Positions 5,211 to 35,689 of a DNA stretch of 40,925 nt are shown piece by piece (position 1 is the stretch's first letter; every line of letters starts with the position of its first letter). The notes under the pieces are model-generated. The model did no database searches. It was not told the origin of the DNA and saw only the letters and a list, made by a program, of their open reading frames with translations. The translations under genes were made by a program, and so were the position numbers. Origin of the DNA: a virus (taxonomy: Duplodnaviria > Heunggongvirae > Uroviricota > Caudoviricetes); IMG/VR virus record IMGVR_UViG_2671180437_000016, positions 1 through 40,925 of that record. One strand, given 5' to 3'.

Positions 5211-5225
5211 TTACCGTTGAGGTAA
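5211..5225. promoter_or_regulatory. Operator-like palindrome TTACC-GTTGA-GGTAA (OL-type site)
   Basis: Perfect TTACC-N5-GGTAA inverted repeat between repressor 3' end and early-left operon; preceded by tandem 13-bp repeats GTTACCTC(G/A)GTCT at 5184-5209. Confidence 0.6.
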
Positions 5226-5344: not shown

Positions 5345-5929
5345 TTATTGTTTGCTTTTTTCGTTCTGGTTGATGACAAATTCAATGTAACTTTCGATCT
5401 TTGCTTTCTCGGTTTCGGGTAACAATGCGTAGCGCGAGCGGTCATAGTTGATAGTCGCAGGGTCGTGCGGGTGAATCAGTAATTCATAGCCGTGACGCCC
5501 GAATGCGGATGCAACATTCTCCAGGGTGGAAATGGAAACGCTGACCTCATTGTTTAACAGGCGACTGATTGTCACCTGGGCGACGCCGGATGCGCGGTGA
5601 AGTTTTCCCTGCGTTGAAAGGTCGCGGCTTTCGCTCATCCAGCGTTCCAGGTTGTGAGCCGCCAGCTGACCAATGTCGCTTGGGCCGACAGGCTGAAAAC
5701 CTTCCTGAGAAAGCGAGCGATCGATATCAAGCCAGTTACGGGGTTTATTGGCGGCAGCTTCAATTTTTCGCGCAACCTGGTCGCCGATAACCTTCTTGCC
5801 AAGAGCCCAGCGGTTTACCAGATTTGCCTGAGTTCCAAGTTTTTCTGCCATCCGCGTCTGAACACCATTGAATTCACGGTCGATCAAGTCGTTGAGATTT
5901 TGCCTGCGGACGTCCTGGATACTTTTCAT
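5345..5929 (-). CDS. Prophage repressor (CI-like, two HTH regions, no recognisable S24 autocleavage domain)
   Basis: 194 aa, divergent from Cro-like gene across an operator-rich spacer; HTH-like segments 'MAEKLGTQANLVNRWALGKK' and 'ASGVAQVTISRLLNNEVSVSISTLENVA'; no Ala-Gly/Ser...Lys peptidase motif seen. Confidence 0.7.
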   Translation of the reverse strand: MKSIQDVRRQNLNDLIDREFNGVQTRMAEKLGTQANLVNRWALGKKVIGDQVARKIEAAANKPRNWLDIDRSLSQEGFQPVGPSDIGQLAAHNLERWMSESRDLSTQGKLHRASGVAQVTISRLLNNEVSVSISTLENVASAFGRHGYELLIHPHDPATINYDRSRYALLPETEKAKIESYIEFVINQNEKSKQ

Positions 5930-9416: not shown

Positions 9417-10030
9417 GCGAAATTAATTACCAGGCACTGCTGGCCAAGGCAGAAAAAGCAACGTGTGGTGAGTGGTCGCTCGAATATGGAGAGAGCCGAT
9501 TTGATGGTGATGATGCGCTAATTCATCGTGAAGTTGCTGGATATATTCCTATTTGCAGAATTGAAGGAGCGCATCCAGAAAGCGGTTTCGATGAAGATTT
9601 CCAAATGGAACAGCAGGCCAATGCTGAATTCATCGCCGCAGCCAATCCCGCTACCGTCTTGGCGCTGCTGGATGAGCTGGAAAGAAACCAGCAATACATC
9701 AAACGCCGCGACCAGGAGAACGAGGATATTGCGCTAACGGTAGGGAAGCTGCGCGTTGAGCTTGAGGAGACAAAATCAAAACTCAACGAGCAACGCGAGT
9801 ATTACGAAGGTGTTATCTCGGATGGGAGTAAGCGCATAGCAGAGTTAGAAAGTGGTTCTCAGGCACAAAAGTTAGTTGAAGCAATCATTGTTGCGATAGA
9901 AAACGAACAGGAAAGGCTTTTTGATGAAGATTACCTAATGGATTCGAAAGAATGCATTGACGTAATTCGTGAAGAAGTAAAGCGATGGAATGATTCCCGT
10001 GCCGCTGGCATTCGCATCAAAGGAGAGTGA
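9413..10030 (+). CDS. Ead/Ea22-like protein
   Basis: GTG start overlapping upstream stop, AAGGAGG SD; N-terminus 'SEINYQALLAKAEKATCGEW' is the characteristic Ea22-like signature; coiled-coil C-terminus. Confidence 0.7.
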   Translation: MSEINYQALLAKAEKATCGEWSLEYGESRFDGDDALIHREVAGYIPICRIEGAHPESGFDEDFQMEQQANAEFIAAANPATVLALLDELERNQQYIKRRDQENEDIALTVGKLRVELEETKSKLNEQREYYEGVISDGSKRIAELESGSQAQKLVEAIIVAIENEQERLFDEDYLMDSKECIDVIREEVKRWNDSRAAGIRIKGE

Positions 10031-10031
10031 T

Positions 10032-10547
10032 ATGGCGTTAACACACCACGAACTCTGTCAGATTGCGTACAAGTTCCTTAAGCGCAACGGGTTCAAGGTT
10101 TGCTTTCATGACCGCTTTGTTGCTGTAACCAGTACCGGAGAACAGCCAGATGCTATGGGATTCAGAAATTCAGCATCATGCCTGATAGAGGCGAAGTGTT
10201 CTCGTGCTGACTTGTTGGCAGATAGAAAAAAGCGTTTCCGTAAAAATCCCTCACTTGGCATGGGCGACTGGCGATTCTTTATTAGTGAGCCGGAAATTAT
10301 TTCAGTTGAGGATTTACCTCCCGGCTGGGGATTACTTCACGTTGTTAACGGAAGAGTACGGAAAGTACATGGATGGCCCAGGGGTAATTGCTGTTGGGGT
10401 AATCCTGACGATAAGCCATTTACCGGGAATAAGCAGGTTGAATGCGATTACATGTTATCTGCATTAAGGCGCATGGAGTTGAGAGGGCACCTTAATGAAA
10501 TATATGACGGTGTGATTGTTAATAAGAAAGAAGGAAACGCGGCATGA
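10032..10547 (+). CDS. Putative PD-(D/E)xK-type nuclease-like protein
   Basis: Start at MALTHHELCQ (ATG 10032, SD AAAGGAGAG); 'GEQPDAMGF...LIEAKCSRADL' resembles D...E-x-K nuclease motif; inference only. Confidence 0.45.
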   Translation: MALTHHELCQIAYKFLKRNGFKVCFHDRFVAVTSTGEQPDAMGFRNSASCLIEAKCSRADLLADRKKRFRKNPSLGMGDWRFFISEPEIISVEDLPPGWGLLHVVNGRVRKVHGWPRGNCCWGNPDDKPFTGNKQVECDYMLSALRRMELRGHLNEIYDGVIVNKKEGNAA

Positions 10548-11617
10548 TCACTATTACCAAAGGGCGACTGCTGACAATCAAGCAGTGGCGCGAAACATAC
10601 GGACCGGGTAGCAACGTTGTACTGCCAGCAGAAGAAGCGGAAGAACTGGCACGGATTGCACTGGCATCATTGGAAGCAGATCCAGTTAAACGAGTTAACT
10701 CAGATCAGATGCACCGAGTCTGCTTAGAAGCTAATCGCTATTTAGATAAATATGACGCGATGGCGAAAGAGGTAAATAAGTTGCTTGGACGCATCGCCCC
10801 GCCAGCGCCAGTATTTAACGGCGAATACGGTGACGCATATCAGGGCGCACGGAAGACCTGTCCATCTGGAAACGGCGAGCGCTTGAAGCTGATGAGCACT
10901 TCCCGACTGGAGCAAATCAATGACCACATGTTGAAAGAGGCGCAGGGAGAATCACGCATGGGCGAGCCTGTAATACGTGAGCCAGCACCGGTAGTGCCTG
11001 AAGAAGCAACTCCGGAAAACGTAGAAATGCTCTCTGGCTATGTTTCAACGTACAAATTAACCGATAGCGAGCGCGATATTGCTGCCGAAATATGGAACGC
11101 CTGCCGCGCCGCCATGCTTCAGTCCGGAAACTTTCGGGAAAACAAGAATTCGTCAACCAATAATTTTCGGGAAATCGCGGAAACGTCAACCAACTATCCG
11201 GCAATTCCTAGTGAGGTGTTGTCCGCAATCCTGAAGGTTGCCAGGATTCGTGCCGATTTCGATGATTTTGACGGTGACAGGCGAGGTATCGGTGATTGTC
11301 TGGATGAGGCTGAGCAAGAGCTTATCGTTACCATTAACAAATATGCCAGTCAGTTGGCAGCAGAACCTATAGCGCCTAATGACGTTCGAGAGCAGACAGC
11401 CATTCCACAAGTTCCGGTAACTCCGGATGGTTGGATAAGCTGTAGTGAGCGAATTCCCGCTCAAGACGATTGGGTTTTAATTTATTCAAAGCACGGCGAG
11501 TATATGGCAGGACAGGTACAAGGGGAATACGTGGAGTTGAGCGACGGCACTTTATCGTGGTTAGGGAACGCCTTGTACTGGATGCTGCTACCAGAACCGC
11601 CGCAGGAGGTGAAGTGA
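10544..11617 (+). CDS. DUF551-domain-containing phage protein
   Basis: 357 aa; C-terminal '[28 protein letters not shown]' resembles DUF551. Confidence 0.6.
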
Positions 11618-15603: not shown

Positions 15604-15680
15604 TGGCGTGGCATGCAGGATTCGAACCTGCGACCAACCGCTTAGAAGGCGGTTGCTCTGTCCAACTGAGCTAATGCCAC
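15604..15680 (-). tRNA. tRNA-Arg (anticodon UCU)
   Basis: 77-nt cloverleaf read on minus strand: acceptor GTGGCAT/ATGCCAC, D-arm GCTC...GAGC, anticodon stem ACCGC/GCGGT with loop CTTCTAA (anticodon TCT), T-arm GCAGG-TTCGAAT-CCTGC, discriminator G + CCA. Confidence 0.85.
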
Positions 15681-33580: not shown

Positions 33581-34267
33581 TCAGAAGAACCCTGCTTTGT
33601 CGTTGATATACTCCGCGTGGGTCTGGATATCACGCAGGCATTTGCTCACACCGACGATGTAGCAGAACATGGTGGTCAGCTCCGCCGCCGCGCCCGATAC
33701 GTCGTGCCCGTCTTCCTGTAACTGGTTCAGCAGATTCATCAGCAGTGAGTTCTCCGTCAGGCCGAGAACACCAGACGGCGAGTGAATCAGACTGCGGTAG
33801 CCGGGCTTTAGTGGGGCGCTGTAGGTTTTGTTCTCTATCTTCATTGCCTGCATCACTGCTGATGCTGTGGCGTTGGCTACCTGGTCGGCAACCATCTTTA
33901 TGCGTTCTTCTTGCGGGAGCGAGTTTTTAATGTAACTTCCGGTGCGGCGGATCTGAGGAAGAACCTCACCTGTAACCCATTTACGAAAGCGGTATGGGAT
34001 AGTGCCTGGTGTCACCGCATCGCGGCAGCGGAGGATCAGTGTGTAGAGGCCTGACTCGTTGATAATATTGGTTTCGCCTTGACGGCCTAAGTTAAATTTA
34101 GCCCTTTCATCATCATCAAGAGATTTTATTGACATAGTGGGGTTTGTCAGTTGAAGAGCTTTAATAACGTCTTTGGCAACAAACCAAGGATTTCCATCAA
34201 TAACAATGGCTCGAATGGTTGCTTCTGATTCAAAATGAAAAACAGATGGGGTTACGTTAGCAGTCAT
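33581..34267 (-). CDS. Antirepressor (BRO-N domain N-terminus, Ant-like C-terminus)
   Basis: Start at MTANVTPSVF (ATG 34267, SD AAAGGTGA); 'VFHFESEATIRAIVIDGNPWFVAKDVIKALQ' is a BRO-N signature; C-terminus homologous to 35413..35670 product. Confidence 0.7.
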   Translation of the reverse strand: MTANVTPSVFHFESEATIRAIVIDGNPWFVAKDVIKALQLTNPTMSIKSLDDDERAKFNLGRQGETNIINESGLYTLILRCRDAVTPGTIPYRFRKWVTGEVLPQIRRTGSYIKNSLPQEERIKMVADQVANATASAVMQAMKIENKTYSAPLKPGYRSLIHSPSGVLGLTENSLLMNLLNQLQEDGHDVSGAAAELTTMFCYIVGVSKCLRDIQTHAEYINDKAGFF

Positions 34268-34533
34268 AGTGATCACCTTTGTAGTTAGGTTAATCACCAC
34301 TACCGACGCCAATCGGTTGGTGGTGAACTGTGCAGGGTTGGCGTAACCGGCTACAAAGGACCCGGCGCACCTTTCGGTGCCCCCACACAGCCCACCATAG
34401 AATAGGTGCGCTTTACACATAAAAAAACCGCTTATGCGGCATATGTGCCCCTGTAGTAATCCGGGACGCCAATCCCGGCACTGGATTTTGCCAGTACCCG
34501 ATTACTATGGCACAAGAGGAGTGCAATGTAAAT

Positions 34534-34548
34534 TTACCGCAAAGGTAA
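34534..34548. promoter_or_regulatory. Operator-like palindrome TTACC-GCAAA-GGTAA
   Basis: Perfect site in 394-bp divergent spacer; followed by CAACC-N6-GGTTG inverted repeat (34575-34590). Confidence 0.55.
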
Positions 34549-34626
34549 TGATAAACGCGAAGAAATATTAAAATCAACCGTATTTGGTTGATTGCGTTTA
34601 ACGCTTGATCACCTGAAAGCAAGATA

Positions 34627-34641
34627 TTACCTTTAAGGTAA
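34627..34641. promoter_or_regulatory. Operator-like palindrome TTACC-TTTAA-GGTAA
   Basis: Perfect site 20 nt upstream of ATG 34662. Confidence 0.55.
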
Positions 34642-34661
34642 TGTTATTGTGAGGAAAAGCA

Positions 34662-35390
34662 ATGGAAGTTTTCTGGATAGTTGTTGGTGTGGTTGCGGTG
34701 ATTATTTACGTTATCAACCAGAACAAGACTAAGATCTCTGATCGTACGGTCGTTAATCATAACAAAACGATAAAGACCGAAGATGGGGAGATAACGATTA
34801 ATCGTACACAGGTTATAGAACACACCTCTACTCAGTTTCAAAAAACTGGAGGTAATGCGCCTAATATTTCCGCACCTCCTGCTTATGATAGTGCGGTAAT
34901 CCAGACATATTATAAACAGCAGGAGTTAGCAAAAGAGAGGCAACTGATTCAGCCAAAGCCGTTTACAGCTGAGCTTCCACCTGGAGTGTCAACGCGTCCG
35001 GCATATCATGGAAGATTCCCTGGTGATGACATATCGTCTCAGTCATCTAAAAAAGCACCTCAGGCAGTATCAGAGCCAGCAAGAATACCTTCTGTATCGC
35101 CGCCAAAAGAAGAATCAGCTAACAGAGTTTCAAGTGGTAGCAAGCAGTGCTTGCGATGCAGAATAAACCTACCATATGAAAAATTCAGGAAATCGTCAAA
35201 AAATCCAGATGGATTGACTAAGTGGTGTGCAAGGTGTCTCGATGGCCCAAAGAATACACGCCATATGAAGTGGTGCCCAATTTGTAATGTCCGCAGAAAA
35301 CGAACAAGCTTTTACCCTAATAATCAAAATGCGGATGGCTTAATGGCATGGTGCAAAACGTGCTGGGACGAGCACAAAGCGAAACGATAG
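34662..35390 (+). CDS. Membrane-anchored protein with four C-terminal CxxC motifs (zinc-ribbon-like), unknown function
   Basis: 242 aa; N-terminal TM helix 'VFWIVVGVVAVIIYVI'; C-terminal 'CLRC','WCARC','WCPIC','WCKTC' with internal repeat 'DGL(T/M)(K/A)WC'; SD GAGGAA. Confidence 0.6.
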   Translation: MEVFWIVVGVVAVIIYVINQNKTKISDRTVVNHNKTIKTEDGEITINRTQVIEHTSTQFQKTGGNAPNISAPPAYDSAVIQTYYKQQELAKERQLIQPKPFTAELPPGVSTRPAYHGRFPGDDISSQSSKKAPQAVSEPARIPSVSPPKEESANRVSSGSKQCLRCRINLPYEKFRKSSKNPDGLTKWCARCLDGPKNTRHMKWCPICNVRRKRTSFYPNNQNADGLMAWCKTCWDEHKAKR

Positions 35391-35414
35391 GCCGCTCTTG
35401 CGGCCTTTAAATTT
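35390..35414. terminator. Bidirectional terminator between convergent genes
   Basis: Stem GGCCGC/GCGGCC, loop TCTT, followed by TTTAAATTT. Confidence 0.5.
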
Positions 35415-35670
35415 ACCGGGTTTGTTTTCGTAATTGTTCGGCACAATAGTCGAGATGTGTTTGCAGATCCTGCATAGACATCTGTGAGCTGGTGACATAG
35501 TTAATCAGTGCAGTCAGTTCGGCAAGTGGGCCATCGACATTAAATCCATCCTTATCGAGATCCCGGAGTAATTTCATCAAGTGCGATCCCTCCACCAGTG
35601 ACCTGACGCCTCCCGGCGTGTGAATCCTTTCGGTAAATCCGTCTTCCAGTGGATAGTGATACTGCTGCAT
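35413..35670 (-). CDS. Small antirepressor-like protein under a LexA box (candidate SOS-induced antirepressor)
   Basis: 85 aa from ATG 35670 (SD GGAGAAG; track ORF uses TTG at 35688); 'RIHTPGGVRSLVEGSHLMKLLRDLDKDGFNVDGPLAELTALINYV...DLQTH' aligns with C-terminus of 33581..34267 product; LexA box 20 nt upstream. Confidence 0.6.
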   Translation of the reverse strand: MQQYHYPLEDGFTERIHTPGGVRSLVEGSHLMKLLRDLDKDGFNVDGPLAELTALINYVTSSQMSMQDLQTHLDYCAEQLRKQTR

Positions 35671-35689
35671 CTTATCTTCTCCATGCAAT

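Follow-up and report, generated by a model that had tools for sequence, protein, structure and literature searches.

What are two hairpins that carry the same 8-nt loop doing upstream of the anti-repressor gene of a prophage? The window analyzed here, i.e., the whole 40,925-nt stretch of DNA (IMG/VR record IMGVR_UViG_2671180437_000016), is an integrated E. coli prophage of the phiV10/epsilon15 type (Uetakevirus-like). Its gene ant (33581..34267, minus strand; ATG at 34267..34265) encodes a 228-aa protein with a Bro-N domain (Pfam, 5e-20) that belongs to PHROG 130, "anti-repressor Ant" (8e-57). In the related phage ZX5, an anti-repressor occupies the same position, and its overexpression causes a shift towards lysis (PMC9782041). 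A first-pass annotation of the bare sequence had described the DNA upstream of ant as a long, GC-rich, non-coding leader in which the shared loop might be a repeated binding determinant for a protein or an RNA, by analogy with the sar/Arc/Mnt control of P22 ant.

Our analysis points to a different relationship. The spacer is very probably a P1/P7-type immI RNA cassette in the form found at Gifsy-1 (isrK-C4-antirepressor), with the antisense RNA C4 silencing ant. By their complementarity, the twin same-loop hairpins are the docking sites of C4, one upstream and one downstream, with C4 itself encoded between them. The identification draws on RNA family matches, complementarities, site positions, and coordinated change in relatives. 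Such cassettes have been described before, in phages P1/P7 and in Salmonella Gifsy-1; the observation is real but ordinary.

Hairpins of the ant spacer and the RNA encoded between them

The spacer (34268-34661) has the length of 394 bp first ascribed to it. Its supposed GC-richness holds for the ant-proximal part (34268-34500; GC 0.541), but not for the spacer overall (0.462 vs. 0.490 for the window), the distal part (34501-34661) having a GC content of 0.348. Four small open reading frames (69, 45, 32, and 30 aa) were without a match in Pfam, and the RefSeq annotation is empty there. A conserved small spacer protein, either an orf45 analogue or an Arc/Mnt protein, was considered and rejected, as no Pfam match was found and the frame is inconsistent across loci.

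All three hairpins originally claimed are present, at coordinates that were right within one base. Read on the plus strand, hairpin 1 (previously placed at about 34296-34326) is composed of CACCACTACCG (34295-34305), the loop ACGCCAAT (34306-34313), and CGGTTGGTGGTG (34314-34325); hairpin 2 of CCGGG (34461-34465), the same loop ACGCCAAT (34466-34473), and CCCGG (34474-34478); and hairpin 3 of GGCGCACC (34364-34371), TTTC (34372-34375), and GGTGCCCC (34376-34383). Because ant lies on the minus strand, the transcribed twin loop reads AUUGGCGU. A tRNA-like identity of the hairpins was rejected, the only tRNA reported by ARAGORN being a prophage-borne tRNA-Arg (anticodon TCT) at 15604-15680 on the minus strand.

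Such hairpins might have no function in common, being inverted repeats that arose by chance or ordinary terminators or attenuators. The loop 8-mer by itself is indeed not over-represented in the window (ACGCCAAT occurs four times vs. 1.75 expected, and four or more copies arose in 11 of 100 shuffles), and its count was dropped as evidence on these grounds. The spacer also contains one hairpin, at 34440..34421, that is a genuine terminator by scan. However, the twin-loop configuration—a 7-mer present twice, each copy looped on a stem of 4 bp or more and the reverse complement lying between the copies—was found in just one of 3000 dinucleotide shuffles of the spacer, and a U run follows neither of the twin hairpins. 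We consider this explanation vanishingly improbable. The claim of a structured RNA upstream of ant is upheld both by Rfam matches (below) and by folding, the 281-nt minus-strand RNA (-121.6 kcal/mol) folding far better than its shuffles (z = -5.5).

In an Rfam scan of the whole window, the C4 antisense RNA family (RF01695) matched the minus strand at 34316..34402 over its full length (model positions 1-87), scoring 79.5 bits (cut-off 45). A mature RNA of 78 nt (34396..34319) is predicted from alignment with the 77-nt C4 annotated in P1, and its 3' end (...CACCACC) lines up with that of P1 C4 (...GCCACC). In the predicted fold, a long stem closes the molecule around two internal hairpins, of which the first (GCACC-GAAA-GGUGC, 34364..34383) is hairpin 3 by both the Rfam alignment and the fold. 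The loop of the second carries b' (CCUUUGUAG, 34351..34359), and a' (ACGCCAA, 34338..34344) lies unpaired 3' of that hairpin. Both segments find complements next to ant. Specifically, a' is the exact complement of a2 (UUGGCGU, 34312..34306) in the loop of hairpin 1, hereafter the a2 hairpin (CACCACCAACCG-AUUGGCGU-CGGUAGUGGUG, 34295..34325, minus strand), and b' is the perfect complement of b2 (CUACAAAGG, 34276..34284), which overlaps the ant Shine-Dalgarno sequence AAGGUGA (34279..34273), 5 nt ahead of the ATG. Two features of the a2 hairpin may be recorded here: its outer 5' strand (CACCAC) coincides with the predicted 3' end of mature C4, and the same bases pair with the 5' strand of C4, such that the two helices (34295-34325 vs. 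34319-34396) are mutually exclusive. In some relatives (e.g., loci L030 and L116), a change from CACCACC to CAUCACC is matched downstream by one from GGUGGUG to GGUGAUG.

The upstream docking site belongs to a second RNA, of IsrK type, that carries the a1/b1 module (34421..34497, minus strand; RF01394, 73.5 bits, cut-off 50). Its elements are ordered as a 5' hairpin, the a1 hairpin, b1, and a terminator. The a1 hairpin (CCGGG-AUUGGCGU-CCCGG, 34461..34478) is hairpin 2 and holds a1 (UUGGCGU, 34472..34466), likewise an exact complement of a'. The b1 site (CUACAGGGG, 34448..34456) pairs with b' over 9 positions, including two G-U pairs. A terminator scan finds an intrinsic terminator (GCCGC-AUAA-GCGG plus a U run) at 34421..34440, which the phiV10 record marks as putative rho-independent. 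The c4-a1b1 motif (RF03163), which comprises two hairpins with a1 in the loop of the second (Weinberg et al., 2010, PMC2864571) and counts P1 in its seed alignment, scored 44.2 bits at 34510..34458 in a sensitive scan, narrowly under its cut-off of 46.7. The isrK model fits the window better and also spans b1 and the terminator.

A promoter scan places a predicted sigma-70 promoter on the minus strand at 34504..34532, with a -35 element TTTACA (34532..34527), a 17-nt spacer, and a TG-extended -10 element CATAGT (34509..34504); it is the only promoter-like site found upstream of C4. The predicted start, G34497, is the first base of the isrK match, and the geometry agrees with that of the Gifsy-1 isrK promoter and start as mapped in this analysis. 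By prediction, then, the RNA has the isrK-type attributes of its own promoter and three hairpins, the last of which is an intrinsic terminator.

These assignments change how the three hairpins are to be seen. Only in part do they form a leader of ant: the distal one is the middle hairpin of the IsrK-type RNA, and the third is internal to C4. The proposal that the twin loops are a repeated RNA-binding determinant fared well, as ACGCCAA in C4 complements both exactly. No protein partner is needed to explain the repeat; the spacer itself encodes the partner RNA. Across the entire window, the minus strand has no bipartite (a plus b) targets other than the two in the ant spacer. Considered as isolated duplexes, the sites have energies of -10.3 (a), -12.6 (b2), and -11.7 kcal/mol (b1). 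Predictions for the whole RNAs did not set the interaction apart from shuffles, with z = -0.5 for C4 against the ant leader and -1.6 against the IsrK-type RNA with duplexfold, a tool that does not model loop-to-strand contacts. Cofolding, also blind to loop contacts, left C4 and the ant leader unpaired and joined C4 to the IsrK-type RNA by a marginal, terminal pairing only.

Coordinated change across related loci

We searched IMG/VR with a C4-scaffold pattern in which b' was free and a' was free save for its last two bases, which yielded 120 stretches. Together with phage records and the window, these gave 112 non-identical loci that contain 15 a' variants. In nearly every locus, an exact complement of the resident a' occurs about 79 nt upstream and about 21 nt downstream of C4. 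For the window's own type, ACGCCAA, a1 and a2 were each present in 64 of 65 loci; the complements were found in 8 of 8 loci each for types CTGTCAA and GTTCCAA and in 6 of 6 for GTGCAAA. Complements of non-cognate a' variants were met in 24 of 1568 tests upstream and 13 of 1568 downstream. Classes that lack a perfect a1 have a copy with one or two mismatches.

The b segments behave similarly. A perfect b2 (at least 7 nt) for the resident b' was found in 84 loci, which comprise 34 variants and 40 (a', b') combinations, and its end usually lies 8-12 nt ahead of the start codon. In relatives, b1 sits 8-9 nt past a1 and pairs at 0.925 with its cognate b' vs. 0.719 with non-cognate ones; where b1 is mismatched to b', this is usually at the last position only. 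The plan of the upstream module (hairpin, a1 hairpin, b1, terminator) is constant, and the terminator hairpin with its U-tract is present in nearly all related loci. Among 65 distinct sequences of the a2 hairpin, 86.2% of cells are paired vs. 28-61% when the partner strand is slid. The alignment contains 88 double-sided changes vs. 38 +/- 4 in shuffles, a value that none of 500 shuffles reached. The twin hairpins are thus conserved with covariation across many phages, which, together with the one-in-3000 shuffle result, rules out chance.

The same data bear on the proposal that an RNA- or DNA-binding protein recognizes the identical loops, much as Arc/Mnt act in P22 immI. A pair of identical 8-nt loops could serve as a protein determinant, and RNAs of the isrK family are described as Hfq-binding in their Rfam name ("Hfq-binding RNA"). 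Against this, the exact complement of the loop sits between the twin loops, and the spacer contains neither a sar RNA match nor an Arc/Mnt-like open reading frame. Moreover, the conservation that the first-pass annotation had asked about in related phages holds for the hairpins but not for the loop sequence, which takes at least 15 forms, each matching the a' of its own C4; a conserved protein partner would not permit such variation. Recognition by a protein is therefore highly improbable, and pairing with C4 is the reading that we carry forward.

Proposed mechanism and parallels with P1, Gifsy-1, and other phages

In P1 and P7, C4 and its target are transcribed from one promoter, and RNase P cuts C4 out to about 77 nt; P1 C4 control works partly by Rho-dependent polarity through icd. 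The P1 genome record annotates the promoter P1c4, a1, b1, c4 (77 nt), a2, b2, and icd, and describes a2/b2 as C4 binding sites that repress icd-ant translation. The window has the same order: promoter, a1, b1, terminator-like hairpin, c4, a2, b2, and first open reading frame. It also shares with P1 the C4 fold (b' in the second loop and a' just 3'), an a2 hairpin whose 5' strand is the C4 end, a b2 that lies on the ribosome-binding site, and an anti-repressor as regulated product. All six interacting segments differ between the two, in matched fashion (P1: a' CUGUCAA, a1/a2 UUGACAG, b' CACUAAC, b1/b2 GUUAGUG), and hence so does the specificity. An icd frame between b2 and ant, on whose translation ant transcription depends, occurs only in P1/P7, and is absent from the window and Gifsy-1; as b2 in the window lies directly on the ant ribosome-binding site, polarity via icd would not be required. 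P1 further differs in being a plasmid prophage, in contrast to the integrated prophage of the window. The P1/P7 immI region (c4 antisense RNA, icd, ant1/ant2) was reportedly studied by Citron and Schuster in 1990 and 1992.

Carrying over from P1 and Gifsy-1 how the RNAs are transcribed and processed, in which direction they regulate, and that a1/b1 serve as a decoy, we arrive at a model in which C4 most likely blocks ant translation at a2/b2 and is counteracted by the IsrK-like a1/b1 RNA. The sigma-70 promoter, either constitutive or modulated by the repressor, would start transcription at about 34497, and the terminator (34440..34421) would stop most transcripts, giving an IsrK-type RNA of about 77 nt that presents a1 in a hairpin loop with b1 just behind. 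Read-through transcripts would carry C4, which would probably be cut out as an RNA of about 78 nt. C4 would then pair through a' with the a2 loop and through the loop b' with b2 on the ant Shine-Dalgarno sequence, such that ribosome binding is blocked, no anti-repressor is produced, and lysogeny is kept stable. The a1/b1 module may compete for a'/b', in cis on read-through transcripts or in trans on the short RNA, and so relieve or tune repression; the ratio of short RNA to C4 would set whether ant is translated.

Gifsy-1 offers the closest comparison. Its isrK, c4-a1b1, and C4 matches lie in the same order as in the window, upstream of anrP. Its a1 (UUGGCGU) and a' (ACGCCAA) are identical to those of the window, its b' (CGGUGAU) differs from CCUUUGUAG, and its b2 is likewise placed directly on the antirepressor ribosome-binding site. 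The two cassettes differ in location (behind the antiterminator Q gene in Gifsy-1, beside the tail-fibre region in the window). In Gifsy-1, the read-through mRNA is silent, and short IsrK supplied in trans raises anrP translation 139-fold; the compensatory pairs G28-C162 and G31-C159 were shown to pair (Hershko-Shalev et al., 2016, PMC4825925). With the IsrK start taken at position 34316 of the Gifsy-1 sequence (L124), our mapping makes G28 and G31 the first and last G of a1, and C162 and C159 two of the C residues of a', so that on this alignment the published base pairs join a1 to a'. Within "orf45", the first AUG (nt 107) likewise maps to the AUG in the conserved C4 5' end, UAUGGUGGG, and by these coordinates "orf45" is a reading frame across the C4 gene (within L124 34076-34316, minus strand). 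The nucleotide sequence of orf45 is conserved and its amino-acid sequence is not (PMC4825925), as expected of an RNA gene. STnc1160, an RNA that is processed and stable, spans the orf45 region (PMC4825925). Among the publications consulted, those that mention both RNAs treat IsrK and c4 as separate entries.

The Gifsy-1 experiments also raise the alternative of a purely cis conformational switch, in which the read-through mRNA is silent through pairing of a1/b1 with a'/b' and the short IsrK-type RNA opens it in trans; C4 would be no separate trans repressor, and a2/b2 would be minor. Consistent with such a switch, the 281-nt transcript in its minimum-free-energy fold has a1/b1 paired in cis with a'/b' and the a2 hairpin closed, and native gels and mutants of Gifsy-1 back a structure A of this kind (PMC4825925). 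On the contrary, a2/b2 covary with a'/b' as strictly as a1/b1 do, which a cis switch leaves unexplained, and Gifsy-1 double mutants in which a1:a' pairing is restored still show basal expression of 224-327 units vs. 4 in the wild type (PMC4825925). This residual expression would fit a need for a':a2 pairing as well. Furthermore, the translational coupling of orf45 to the antirepressor, a requirement in Gifsy-1, cannot operate in the window: in Gifsy-1, orf45 runs through C4 to the anrP start codon, whereas the corresponding frame of the window, opened by the AUG of UAUGGUGGG, closes within C4 after 15 codons, and the behavior of this frame is inconsistent across related loci. P1 C4, for its part, acts in trans according to the P1 annotation and established literature. 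We consider a purely cis switch rather unlikely and its operation as part of the mechanism possible, with repression by C4 at a2/b2 the preferred account. The role of a1/b1 within that account is less certain, in that an a1 mutation in cis raises basal translation in Gifsy-1 (PMC4825925), an effect that a simple sponge model does not predict.

Sequence similarity was found neither between the window's Ant and the P1 antirepressor (Ant1, KilAC/ANT domain) nor between it and that of Gifsy-1 (AnrP, an ORF6N protein). The genes behind the cassette are thus diverse—Bro-N Ant in the window and phiV10, ORF6N AnrP in Gifsy-1, icd plus KilAC-domain Ant in P1, and a Rha-type gene in an IMG/VR stretch described below—and the RNA cassette is therefore portable between unrelated target genes.

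Two further systems place the cassette in context. P22 relies on two protein repressors, Arc and Mnt, that act at operators, and its sar RNA is read off the opposite strand, spanning the ribosome-binding site of ant. P22 immI resembles the window in devoting a second immunity region, small antisense RNA included, to keeping an anti-repressor gene silent in the lysogen. The specific analogy first drawn with sar/Arc/Mnt proved mistaken: no sar RNA was found at gathering score in the whole window, nor at E up to 5 in 34150-34750, and arc/mnt were not found, the four small spacer frames being without a Pfam match at E up to 1. It is P1/P7 immI and Gifsy-1 isrK that fit. The CI RNA of P4 causes premature transcription termination on replication genes. 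With its sites seqA and seqC, it is like C4 a leader-processed small RNA that has one complementary site upstream and one downstream, a parallel noted previously (PMC4825925); the window has no Rfam match to a P4 CI-type RNA.

Prophage setting and immunity specificity

One base upstream of the predicted -35 element lies a palindrome, TTACC-N5-GGTAA (34534..34548), whose half-sites are kept at this position in 19 phiV10-type loci while N5 varies. Judged from its sequence and placement, it is probably a candidate operator of the prophage repressor. The motif occurs 16 times in the window (11 perfect copies and 5 with one mismatch) vs. 0.56 expected, with 15-bp sites starting at 5211, 5273, 5985, 6033, 6370, 8316, 8378, 12376, 12394, 15249, 16003, 33500, 34534, 34627, 35747, and 37728. 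All are intergenic, 20-170 bp ahead of gene starts, and several come after terminators; pairs spaced 48-62 bp apart flank promoter-like hexamers, and copies cluster near an HTH_3 repressor-like gene (5345-5929, 194 aa). The 16 palindromes probably form a dispersed operator set of the prophage repressor, which recalls the many C1 operators of P1. Weak Rfam matches on the plus strand at 34532-34668 (lysM-TM7, CRISPR-DR57, and IMES-4; E 0.5-4) were dismissed as products of the TTACC/GGTAA palindromes.

Two neighboring frames deserve mention. A divergent 242-aa frame on the plus strand (34662-35390; PHROG 6762, function unknown) carries a hydrophobic segment at its N-terminus and, at its C-terminus, two Cys-rich motifs that weakly match endonuclease VII and Lar-like PHROGs. 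Beyond it, a 91-aa frame on the minus strand (35413-35688; PHROG 450, function unknown), with a TTACC-N5-GGTAA site upstream, shares 40% identity (E 1e-19) with the C-terminal 78 residues of Ant and resembles a free-standing copy of the Ant C-terminal domain.

Sequence resembling this spacer occurs in 948 of 5426 complete E. coli genomes, where it is unannotated. Some phages carry the cassette more than once. In one IMG/VR stretch (L025, UViG_2671181028_000005; 9678-11290), three 656-bp units stand in tandem, head to tail, each with an IsrK-type module, C4, and a nearly identical Rha-domain gene. Their a'/b' segments differ (CTGCGAA/TCCTTGATCG, ACGCCAA/CTATGTTGA, and GTTCCAA/TCCGTATGC). A further stretch (L057, 4621-5577) has two IsrK/C4/Rha units like these.

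Tentatively, and with some doubt, we suggest that the (a', b') pair is a combinatorial address for RNA-level immunity groups among enterobacterial prophages and that the cassette is a two-layer, three-RNA switch. Under this suggestion, the terminated IsrK-type RNA would act as a decoy dedicated to C4, if a slightly weaker one, and pairing of the C4 3' end with the alternative strand past a2 would toggle the transcript between a processed and a cis-locked state. Were the address reading true, co-resident or superinfecting phages of one address would cross-regulate their anti-repressors, and phages with several tandem cassettes would respond to several addresses.

The general picture of how such cassettes work is left unchanged by these data. 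Their practical value is in annotation, as RefSeq and the phage records leave these RNAs unmarked in this prophage type, in a spacer that would control the anti-repressor, a trigger of prophage induction. Further, the Gifsy-1 "IsrK/orf45" and P1 "c4" loci emerge as one architecture, a correspondence that could help to reconcile the two mechanistic models proposed for them.
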